This document shows, in pieces, positions 2,204 through 4,000 of a stretch of 4,000 nt of DNA (positions are counted from its first letter, which is position 1; the number at the start of each line of letters is the position of its first letter). The stretch lies in IMG/VR virus record IMGVR_UViG_2711768018_000015; one strand, 5' to 3'. Origin of the DNA: a virus. Lineage: Duplodnaviria > Heunggongvirae > Uroviricota > Caudoviricetes. A program made the translations under genes and the position numbers. The notes under the pieces are model-generated. The model ran no database searches. It worked only from the letters and a program-made list of their open reading frames with translations, and was not told where the DNA came from.

Positions 2204-2255
2204 CAATTGCCTTCTAAGCAATCGGTCACTGGTTCGAATCCAGTACAGCGCGCCA
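2179..2255 (+). tRNA. tRNA-Arg (anticodon UCU), 5' portion masked; visible part is 2204-2255
   Basis: Seen directly: anticodon stem ATTGC/GCAAT (2206-2210 / 2218-2222) around the 7-nt loop CTTCTAA (2211-2217; U33, anticodon TCT, A37). A 5-nt variable loop CGGTC follows. The T-arm is ACTGG-TTCGAAT-CCAGT (2228-2244), then acceptor 3' strand ACAGCGC, discriminator G and CCA (2253-2255). The start at 2179-2180 is back-calculated from standard tRNA numbering. Confidence 0.8.
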
Positions 2256-2392
2256 TATTCATTCTTCCAGATTCCTTCCGGCAGAGCCTTATACTGAAAT
2301 ATACCTGGCTCAGGATATTGTTGAAAATATTTTATGTTTGTCAAAAATAAAAGTTCTGTTAAGTATTGATTGAGTGTTTGTTATACGGTCTA

Positions 2393-2719
2393 ATGGTTTT
2401 TTCAGCATTAAATATTTATCATTCATATGGTGTGGGTAGAGTGAATATTGATGAGGCGTCGGGGTGTTTCATCCTTAGGCAGCGTATTGATATAGTCAAT
2501 GCAGCACGAGCAAAGGCCTTCAGCCGTTTGACAGTTTTGTTCTGTACTCCTGATCGTCTTTCGGGAAGAGACGTTATTATTCTGAATAGTGATGCTATAC
2601 AGAGGGTTTGCGATGAGTTCATGGTTGCTAATTCAGAATTATTTGCTCTTGTTCAGGAGTACAACAGAATAGCCAGGACCTGTGGTATGGATGAACTTCG
2701 GATTACTCATCTGGGGTAG
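2393..2719 (+). CDS. Hypothetical cargo protein (orphan ORF A, about 92-108 aa depending on start), rich in rare codons
   Basis: Open frame 2366-2719. Possible starts are ATG 2393 (no SD) and GTG 2441 (weak GGTG/GGG upstream); none is strong. Of 11 Arg codons, 6 are AGA/AGG; of 10 Ile codons, 3 are ATA. The composition is protein-like. It lies 110-185 nt downstream of tRNA-Arg(UCU), in the position stxA occupies in Stx phages. No homolog recognised. Confidence 0.4.
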   Translation: MVFSALNIYHSYGVGRVNIDEASGCFILRQRIDIVNAARAKAFSRLTVLFCTPDRLSGRDVIILNSDAIQRVCDEFMVANSELFALVQEYNRIARTCGMDELRITHLG

Positions 2720-2822
2720 ATACATATCTGGATTATCACCTGTTACGGTAAAAAGTGATTGCTTACTGTTTTTGTGAATGGCATTGCAGCAGCCGGATAA
2801 TGTCAGTGCTGGCTGACGGTGT

Positions 2823-2830
2823 GCTGGTGG
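2823..2830 (+). other. Chi recombination hotspot octamer 5'-GCTGGTGG-3'
   Basis: Exact match to the E. coli Chi sequence on the + strand, inside a GT-rich stretch (2806-2850). Confidence 0.6.
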
Positions 2831-3110
2831 CGGGTGTGGTGGTTGTTGCTTTCCCGTTGCTGAAAAAGAAAACGCCAGACTGTTAGCCGGGTATCAGTTA
2901 GCGGGAGAAATTTTTAAATACTTCACAATTCAGGCGGTTGACTGTTGTCTGGTTTGCGGGGAGTTTGTTAAAAGAAACTGGCATGGTGAATCCCCCTGTG
3001 CGGAGGGGCAATCAGCGAGTAGGTATATGGGATAATCGCGGATTCAGGTGCTGGTACTGAATTCACCGGGAGGCACCCGGCACCATGCAATGGCACATAG
3101 CGCCACTCTC

Positions 3111-3140
3111 CAGCCCCTCTCCGGAGGGGCTGTTTATATT
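3111..3140 (+). terminator. Rho-independent terminator (9-bp perfect GC-rich stem, 4-nt loop, T-rich tail)
   Basis: CAGCCCCTC (3111-3119), loop TCCG (3120-3123), GAGGGGCTG (3124-3132), then TTTATATT (3133-3140). It sits tail-to-tail between the two convergent cargo ORFs. The U-tract is on the + strand only, so it is mainly a + strand terminator. Confidence 0.65.
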
Positions 3141-3166
3141 GATTTTGTCAGATGTGAGTAAACTCC

Positions 3167-3502
3167 TTATGGACTTTGTTGTTTTAGTCCATAAGGACAT
3201 ATTTGCAGAGTGCAACGGTTATTAAAGCATTCATTCAATACGTTATCTGTATTTGTAGGGCATTCCTGGCTATTTTTGATTGAATTCCAGAATGTTTTAT
3301 TGAATGGTACTACGTTGTAAATGGTTACAGGTAGCACTTTGTTATTGAGCATGATGCCTGTGTGAGTCAGTGTAAATATACTTTCAGGAGGTAAGAAAGC
3401 ATCCGATTGATACCAGATTATTAATTTTATTTTACTCCATATGACTGAAAAAGATATTCCGCATGATGGCTGGATAACTGTATCAATCACAATCCACTTC
3501 AT
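3167..3502 (-). CDS. Hypothetical AT-rich cargo protein (orphan ORF B, 111 aa) with a C-terminal Cys-x9-Cys-x4-Cys-x4-Cys cluster
   Basis: ATG at 3500-3502 (minus strand) is preceded by AAGGAA with a 6-nt spacer, a good RBS. Of 13 Ile codons, 6 are ATA, and GC content is low (I did not compute the exact value). The sequence has no obvious signal peptide. The C-terminus reads ...[27 protein letters not shown].... No homolog recognised. Confidence 0.5.
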
Positions 3503-3611: not shown

Positions 3612-3762
3612 TTAAATGCAGGGTGGTTTATATCTCGTCTTGTAGTTTATCCATGCATATCTGCTTGATAATCAGGTTTTTATTTAAGGTATGGTTTTGT
3701 GTTTTTTCTGTATTACATGTCAGGTATTTTAAAGAATTATTTTTCAGATGGTGGAAAGAACC

Positions 3763-3936
3763 ATGGCATTTAAACACTATGATGTTGTCAGGGCGGCGCC
3801 GCCGTCAGATCTTGCGGAAAAGCTGACACATAAACTGAAAGAGGGCTGGCAGCCGTTTGGTAGTCCGGTGGCCATAACCCCTTATACCCTGAGGTGTACT
3901 GGCAATAGCGGACACTACCATTTGTTCTTTTTTTAA
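3763..3936 (+). CDS. Small conserved phage protein, DUF1737-like by recollection (57 aa from ATG 3763; alternative ATG 3748)
   Basis: Product MAFKHYDVVRAAPPSDLAEKLTHKLKEGWQPFGSPVAITPYTL... resembles my memory of small proteins found upstream of lysis cassettes in E. coli prophages. ATG 3763 has a GGTGGAAAG SD-like element upstream; ATG 3748 has none. The C-terminal tail ...RCTGNSGHYHLFFF looks atypical. Confidence 0.5.
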   Translation: MAFKHYDVVRAAPPSDLAEKLTHKLKEGWQPFGSPVAITPYTLRCTGNSGHYHLFFF

Positions 3937-4000
3937 GCAGCCATCTGATGATATTTTTCCCTGAAGGCTGCCGGGGAGATATTCCCCAGACGAGAGTGAC

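Follow-up and report, generated by a model that had tools for sequence, protein, structure and literature searches.

The open reading frame designated here as ORF A, which lies a short distance downstream of a phage tRNA gene in the 4,000-nucleotide stretch of DNA that was analysed (hereafter the window), is, on comparative sequence grounds, a real small gene of lambdoid prophages that is under purifying selection. The explanation that we hold to be probable is that this is a gene of 92 residues occupying positions 2441–2719 on the plus strand, that its rare codons are driven by base composition, and that any effect of the neighbouring tRNAs is a general one rather than one specific to ORF A. 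The original prediction had placed the gene at 2366–2719 and had proposed that its codon usage was matched to the adjacent tRNA-Arg(UCU) in a coupling like that suggested for stx, taking this as support for its being a genuine, horizontally acquired gene. The gene itself has been borne out; its proposed start, the argument from codons and the gene-specific coupling have not.

The prophage in the window is a lambdoid one of the E. coli/Shigella type, and what the window covers is its late-regulatory region. Before Q lies RusA (323–697), followed on the plus strand by a Q-type late antiterminator of 284 residues (694–1548; Pfam PF03589 Antiterm, E = 7e-55). Within 1501–1548 this Q gene lacks six nucleotides that create a stop codon in relatives (L005 3405–3420), with the result that the protein has 284 residues as against 273 and that its reading frame extends through the candidate late promoter. 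This promoter (TTGATT and TAAATT, 16 nt apart, at 1513–1540 on the plus strand) was read by eye from the sequence and overlaps the last codons of Q; we take it to resemble lambda PR′ (TTGACT-17-TAAATT). A scan for consensus promoters did not call the element at 1513–1540, as its score is 8/12. There follow, all on the plus strand, a masked run of 615 N (1589–2203), the last 52 nt of an argO-type tRNA-Arg(UCU) (2204–2255, with the anticodon TCT at 2213–2215) and, after a gap of 186 nt on the same strand, ORF A, which is the first open reading frame after argO and ends with a TAG stop codon at 2717–2719.

Beyond ORF A comes a gene for a DUF3927/TciB-like small membrane protein of 43 residues (2755–2886, plus strand; Pfam PF13064, E = 1.7e-27; phrog_1470), which commonly lies next downstream of members of the ORF A family, as shown by synteny in five of the related loci (L009 and L011–L014). 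Next on the plus strand is the prophage sRNA STnc100 (2952–3141; full-length match to RF02076, 132 bits), which ends in a strong terminator hairpin (3111–3132) and over which a minus-strand pseudogene is annotated in RefSeq relatives; STnc100 is related to the PasD sRNAs in a 2026 preprint (10.64898/2026.05.13.724894). Running counter to the late operon is a prophage-borne iraM (3167–3502, minus strand; NF007393, E = 6.5e-47), which encodes an anti-adaptor of RpoS degradation, is very AT-rich (35% G+C) and uses ATA for 6 of its 13 Ile codons. Finally, a fragment of a DUF1737/NanS-type esterase gene begins at 3748 and extends to 3892, where an IS600 element (IS3 family), whose end occupies 3893–4000, interrupts it. 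IS600 is common in Shigella; the window may come from a genome of Shigella type, and the prophage that bears this insertion may be defective. The genes present downstream of argO are thus ORF A, DUF3927, STnc100, IraM and the DUF1737 fragment, and the stx operon is not among them.

As regards the start codon, every one of the diverged relatives begins at the position aligned with GTG 2441, and in three of them (L006, L011 and L029) there are in-frame stops just 5′ of the aligned start. Alignment at the DNA level with L003 requires frame-breaking indels within 2366–2440, while PGAP has annotated a 92-residue relative (WP_001017777.1) at exactly matching limits (L017 4001–4279). From the aligned starts, the upstream stops, the indels and the PGAP limits it follows that the gene is best placed at 2441–2719, with GTG 2441 rather than TTG 2366 as its start, and that the N-terminal extension originally proposed (2366–2440, plus strand) is most likely a non-coding 5′ leader. 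The similarity that the window shares with L009 and L017 upstream of the gene starts only about 45 nt before the GTG, and the segment from about 2396 to 2440 is a region of translation initiation that has been conserved, its Shine-Dalgarno sequence being degenerate (GGGTAGA-GTG in the window as against AGGAGTAGA-GTG in relatives). In L009 and L017 a good AGGAG stands seven bases 5′ of the GTG, at the place where the window has GGGTAGA, so that the original remark on the weakness of the ribosome-binding site is quite correct. The family to which the protein belongs, phrog_2873, has a profile of 108 positions, since the start taken for its members was an ATG further upstream, corresponding to position 2393 of the window; the family-wide alignment favours the 92-residue form. 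Given the weak Shine-Dalgarno sequence, the GTG start and the fact that RefSeq skips the gene in all 36 of the matches sampled (see below), the window allele could be poorly expressed, or could be decaying in its lineage.

The membership of that family is clear: the ORF A protein matches phrog_2873 with E = 5.6e-58 (194.8 bits), its residues 1–92 falling on profile positions 17–108, and the same profile is also matched by the relative P0014 and by a plasmid copy (L006). No function is assigned to phrog_2873, which has phrog_4827 as a remote relative. Relatives of ORF A have 91–95 residues, extend down to 33% identity, and occur in prophages of E. coli and Citrobacter and on E. coli plasmids; a protein search returned few of them, some being full-length at 56–63% identity, and tblastn added the E. 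coli plasmid copies at 33–36% identity, annotated as hypothetical proteins of 91–94 residues. The family is in fact narrow, with 22 matches among 1.84 billion representative proteins and a range comprising Escherichia, Shigella and Citrobacter. Among its moderately diverged members the pairwise dN/dS is 0.22–0.31, and the differences at the three codon positions number 24/23/43, those at the third being about twice those at the first or the second. Both reading frame and length are preserved down to 33% identity across three different genomic contexts, and the large clusters of ORF A proteins are intact, local frame disruptions being seen in a few singleton variants (P0009, P0013). It is on the family match, the dN/dS values and the occurrence of relatives in both prophages and plasmids, then, that the view of ORF A as a real and horizontally mobile gene can be upheld.

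The genomic setting is also conserved, in the order Q, variable accessory genes, the ORF A family member, usually a TerB-like gene of 141 residues, DUF3927 and holin; in the window and in five of the relatives (L001, L002, L009, L011 and L017) the gene lies between RusA/Q and the DUF3927/lysis genes. The plasmid copies are flanked by IS elements and look like transplanted prophage fragments, and their convergent neighbour of 80 residues was found in no prophage locus. Two other features within ORF A were considered and rejected, namely a minus-strand open reading frame (2419–2622), because the pattern of substitutions suits the plus frame, and a terminator-like hairpin (2555–2573), because it lies inside conserved codons and is absent from L003.

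In annotation the gene is largely passed over. An identical 92-residue protein is present in GenBank as a hypothetical protein, and the exact protein has been recorded from Shigella sonnei. At a threshold of at least 99% identity the sequence occurs in 1172 of 5426 complete E. coli genomes, and among 36 near-identical matches (99–100%) sampled from complete E. coli genomes there was none with a RefSeq CDS beneath it; the CDS is likewise unannotated in E. coli 042 and in phage mEp460. Searches of Pfam, NCBIfam and PADLOC placed neither ORF A nor its relatives in a family, and Rfam gave no match within 2366–2719. The value of the present result for annotation is therefore that of a conserved, under-annotated prophage gene of 92 residues whose start is now set by comparative evidence, adding one such member to a phage family without assigned function.

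The tRNA upstream had been correctly identified as a tRNA-Arg(UCU), since positions 2204–2255 match the last 52 nt of the L005 tRNA-Arg(tct) (3739–3815) at every base and show one mismatch, within the readable 52 nt, to argO of the Stx-type phage Lahn2. There is also a weak Rfam tRNA match at 2205–2244; ARAGORN found no tRNA in the window, as the 5′ half of the molecule (about 25 nt) lies inside the masked stretch. What that stretch is likely to contain can be judged from L021 and L027, two IMG/VR contigs with flanks 100% identical to those of the window, in which the place of the window's 615 N is taken by 264 nt. In these relatives the 264-nt interval holds an intrinsic terminator, a tRNA of the Ile2 type (CAU), a degraded remnant of argN and the 5′ part of tRNA-Arg(UCU), the terminator being located precisely where the mask begins, between Q and the tRNAs. 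The masked run is about 350 nt longer than this interval, and the genome from which the window comes may carry an extra insert between Q and argO. Among complete E. coli genomes there was none that matched the window over its full length, and L005 is a relative of the source rather than the source itself.

A tRNA with anticodon CAU lies about 100 nt upstream of the tRNA-Arg in every close relative (eight loci, L021 and L027 among them), and is named tRNA-Ile by PGAP; CAU tRNAs of the ileZ type read AUA after lysidine modification. In the close relatives all that lies between the two tRNAs is a spacer of 100 nt bearing a 3′ remnant like argN. Full ileZ-argN-argO triples are present elsewhere in L025 and L027; the record for Lahn2 itself lists ileZ (CAU), argN (UCG) and argO (UCU) downstream of q. 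The L027 contig is complicated, containing within 1739–7480 three successive tRNA sets (one pair of Ile2 and Arg-UCU, and two ileZ-argN-argO triples) together with two copies of ORF A, an arrangement explained by a tandem mosaic or else by an assembly chimera. Beyond the 3′ end of argO the window remains similar to Lahn2 for about 10 nt (window 2255–2270), and the end of the tRNA therefore marks a mosaic breakpoint at which different cargo, stx or ORF A, has been joined. It may be added that a tRNA-Thr(UGU) is found upstream of diverged genes of the ORF A family in four loci (L006 3833–3905, L008 3829–3901, L011 2691–2766 and L015 2595–2670), so that the order of a tRNA followed by an ORF A-family gene recurs with different tRNA identities.

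Turning to codon usage, a recount over 2366–2719 agreed with the original figure of six AGA/AGG codons (AGA 3, AGG 3) among 11 Arg codons, and with that of three ATA codons for Ile, although the total of Ile codons is 11 and not 10 as had been given. Over the CDS as now defined (2441–2719) the corresponding counts are 5 of 10 for AGA/AGG and 3 of 9 for ATA, and of the five AGA/AGG codons only two are AGA, the cognate codon of UCU. How unusual these numbers appear depends on the baseline chosen. Against 37 core genes of E. coli 042, in which AGA/AGG make up 2.8% of Arg codons and ATA 5.1% of Ile codons, ORF A lies far outside (P about 4e-6 for Arg, 5/10). Its codon index relative to core genes is 0.47, the second lowest when set among 71 prophage CDS (prophage median 0.60, core median 0.68), which implies that ORF A is without adaptation to the host.

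Comparison with prophage genes gives a more qualified picture. In the same prophage region of a relative, the 71 annotated CDS have AGA/AGG at 19.3% and ATA at 18.1%, against which ORF A shows only a modest excess (P 0.03 for Arg and 0.2 for Ile, both values being uncorrected). When AGA, AGG and ATA are counted together its density is the highest, at 8.7 per 100 codons, the prophage CDS having a median of 2.4 and reaching 8.2 at most, while an AGA/AGG share of at least 40% is seen in nine other prophage genes. The third baseline is the base composition of ORF A itself (44% G+C), from which 42% AGA/AGG would be expected, compared with the 50% observed, and 22–33% ATA; the probability of obtaining five or more out of ten is then 0.41, so that there is no excess. 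Since composition alone predicts the rare codons, they cannot serve as evidence of coding, as had originally been supposed.

The most serious alternative to this account, though we consider it unlikely, is that the rare codons have been kept so that ORF A is made efficiently only when tRNA-Arg(UCU) and tRNA-Ile2 are co-expressed with it. Several observations lend it some colour: the density of AGA, AGG and ATA in ORF A exceeds that in all 71 of the annotated prophage CDS, the codon index is the second lowest, an interval of 186 nt separates the gene from the tRNA, both being on one strand, and some relatives (L027) retain the full ileZ-argN-argO set at that same 186-nt spacing. In addition, the argO-adjacent allele has AGA/AGG at 5 of 10 Arg codons as against 8 of 31 in the other alleles pooled, a difference that runs in the direction expected of either permissive or selected coupling. 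Against this, that difference comes from a small sample and is not significant (Fisher P 0.24), an AGA/AGG share of 42% is already predicted by base composition, and three of the five codons in question are AGG, which the UCU anticodon reads only through wobble.

Further evidence comes from the individual sites. A codon alignment of eight family members shows that the conserved Arg sites (15, 23, 29 and 39) use CGT, CGA or CGC everywhere, while all five AGA/AGG codons of the window occupy positions that vary, the residue in relatives being Leu, Lys, Met, Gln, Asn, Gly, Ser, Glu or another. Four of the five are a single base away from the codon of some relative at the same site, mostly one for Lys, Ser or Gly, as in AAG → AGG at site 55 or AGC or GGT → AGG at site 79. 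To judge from this alignment, the AGA/AGG codons of ORF A look like amino-acid replacements rather than synonymous choices, and the gene is a fast-evolving one without detectable selection on its synonymous codons.

Comparison between genomic contexts points the same way. Late regions with no tRNAs between Q and the gene (L009, L017) use AGA/AGG at 19–24% and ATA at 22–34%, which is equal to what is found in a late region having tRNA-Ile2 and tRNA-Arg (AGA/AGG 18%, ATA 28%); for prophage regions lacking these tRNAs the overall range of rare-codon use is 19–28% as against 18%. Where a tRNA-Thr(UGU) precedes the family member, as it does on plasmids and in prophages of Citrobacter and others, the gene contains only 0–1 ACA codons. 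Composition, the variability of the sites, the tRNA-less regions, the ACA control and the low share of AGA all tell against the gene-specific, stx-like coupling that had been proposed. The rare codons of ORF A are, on the sequence comparisons made here, a by-product of composition and not evidence of tuning to a phage tRNA; as the prophage region as a whole is rich in AGA/AGG (19% as against 3% in core genes), any benefit from the tRNAs would be the general one proposed for Stx phages. The case may serve as a worked negative control for arguments based on rare codons lying next to a phage tRNA, the pattern being explained jointly by composition, site conservation and tRNA-less relatives.

On the preferred reading, that of a real 92-residue gene with composition-driven codons, a fairly simple sequence of events can be envisaged. 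ORF A is the first gene after the tRNAs that follow Q, and lies upstream of TciB/DUF3927 and the lysis genes; its position after Q and the tRNAs makes it most likely that it belongs to the Q-dependent late transcript. Polymerase modified by Q would read past the promoter-proximal terminator and on through the tRNAs, ORF A and the genes downstream, and the co-transcribed tRNAs (Ile2-CAU and Arg-UCU) would plausibly ease the decoding of AGA and ATA throughout the prophage, ORF A included. The original assignment of the gene to the late programme thus stands as far as its place in the late operon, after Q and the phage tRNAs, is concerned, and expression in that programme is what such a place would lead one to expect.

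As to the protein, AF2 modelling using nine family members gave a mean pLDDT of 88.5 and two long helices (residues 3–33 and 50–81), joined by a loop bearing a conserved C-T/P-P-D-R/K motif, so that ORF A is predicted to encode a soluble two-helix hairpin with a conserved motif at its tip. Foldseek searches of the PDB and BFVD with this model yielded helical hairpins of a generic kind and nothing else, every E value exceeding 0.1, and a sequence profile search of the PDB gave nothing below E 0.08. Speculatively, the likeliest way for the protein to act would be through the hairpin binding a partner protein during late infection. A more elaborate proposal would have the ORF A family consist of first genes of the late operon, repeatedly placed straight after phage tRNAs (Arg-UCU/Ile2 in one lineage and Thr-UGU in another), with codons in the argO lineage that gate synthesis and so restrict the hairpin protein, acting on some target in the host or in lysis timing, to induced cells; we would rate this as more doubtful than codon gating taken by itself.

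Another suggestion, which we think has a slimmer chance again, is that ORF A is a small anti-regulator acting together with the AraC/YdeO/GadX-like regulator encoded directly upstream in some relatives, much as TraM and other hairpin anti-activators do. A gene of the HTH_18/AraC type (241–242 residues) does lie immediately upstream in five loci (L003, L004, L009, L010 and L029), and one of the weak Foldseek matches was to the TraR-TraM anti-activation complex (2q0o_D). However, no AraC-type neighbour is present in the window, in L001, L005 or L011–L017, or beside the plasmid copies, and the fold matches, with their E values above 0.1, are all to generic hairpins; it is because of the inconsistency of the neighbour across loci that the idea is held at low probability. 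The regulator (L003 164–889, L009 4142–4870 and L029 3147–3872) is closest to YdeO/GadX (NF007407, E = 4e-35) and is carried by some STEC-type prophages; we presume it to resemble the prophage-encoded acid-resistance regulators Psr and PatE.

Weakest of all is the notion that ORF A does not code, being a remnant or else a reading frame that arose by chance in AT-rich DNA 3′ of a tRNA, for although the gaps in annotation (the 36 sampled matches, E. coli 042 and mEp460), the weak ribosome-binding site with its GTG start, the frame disruptions in a few singletons and a richness in rare codons such as non-coding DNA read in frame would show are all in keeping with it, it is very improbable in view of the dN/dS values and the third-position excess, the retention of frame and length to 33% identity in three contexts, the match to phrog_2873 and the annotation of relatives by PGAP, the confident AF2 model obtained despite a shallow alignment and the intactness of the large protein clusters, and at the level of the family it is already largely refuted.

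It remains to set the real gene with composition-driven codons beside the systems that it recalls. In Stx phages (933W and its relatives) the ileZ-argN-argO tRNAs are reportedly proposed to aid the expression of genes rich in rare codons, of which stx is an example; within the paper collection that was searched, ileZ, argN and argO brought up nothing relevant, and no paper pairing ileZ with Shiga. The resemblances to that cluster are considerable. The window's tRNA-Arg(UCU) is nearly the same and has the same position after Q and the same orientation, a tRNA-Ile(CAU) accompanies it in all the close relatives of the window, ORF A is the first open reading frame after argO just as stxA is there, and AGA, AGG and ATA are frequent in the prophage genes. 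The differences are equally plain: the cargo is a 92-residue protein without assigned function rather than a toxin, argN(UCG) is reduced to a remnant in the window's close relatives, homology to the Stx phage stops about 10 nt after the tRNA and, in contrast to the coupling proposed for stx, the codon match of ORF A is no better than its composition would give and is not specific to the gene. The understanding of Stx-phage tRNAs is left unchanged by this. The concept is one that is already known.

With regard to phrog_2873, ORF A conforms in matching over all of its 92 residues and departs in length from a profile of 108 positions. More broadly, there is a general co-adaptation between the tRNAs encoded by phages and phage codon usage, the tRNAs of T4 being one example of it. 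The present prophage is like this in that codons read by its tRNAs are several-fold commoner in prophage genes than in core genes, but unlike it in that the same codon bias is found in prophage regions that have no tRNAs, so that the tRNAs here look like an optional add-on rather than the co-evolved partner of particular genes.
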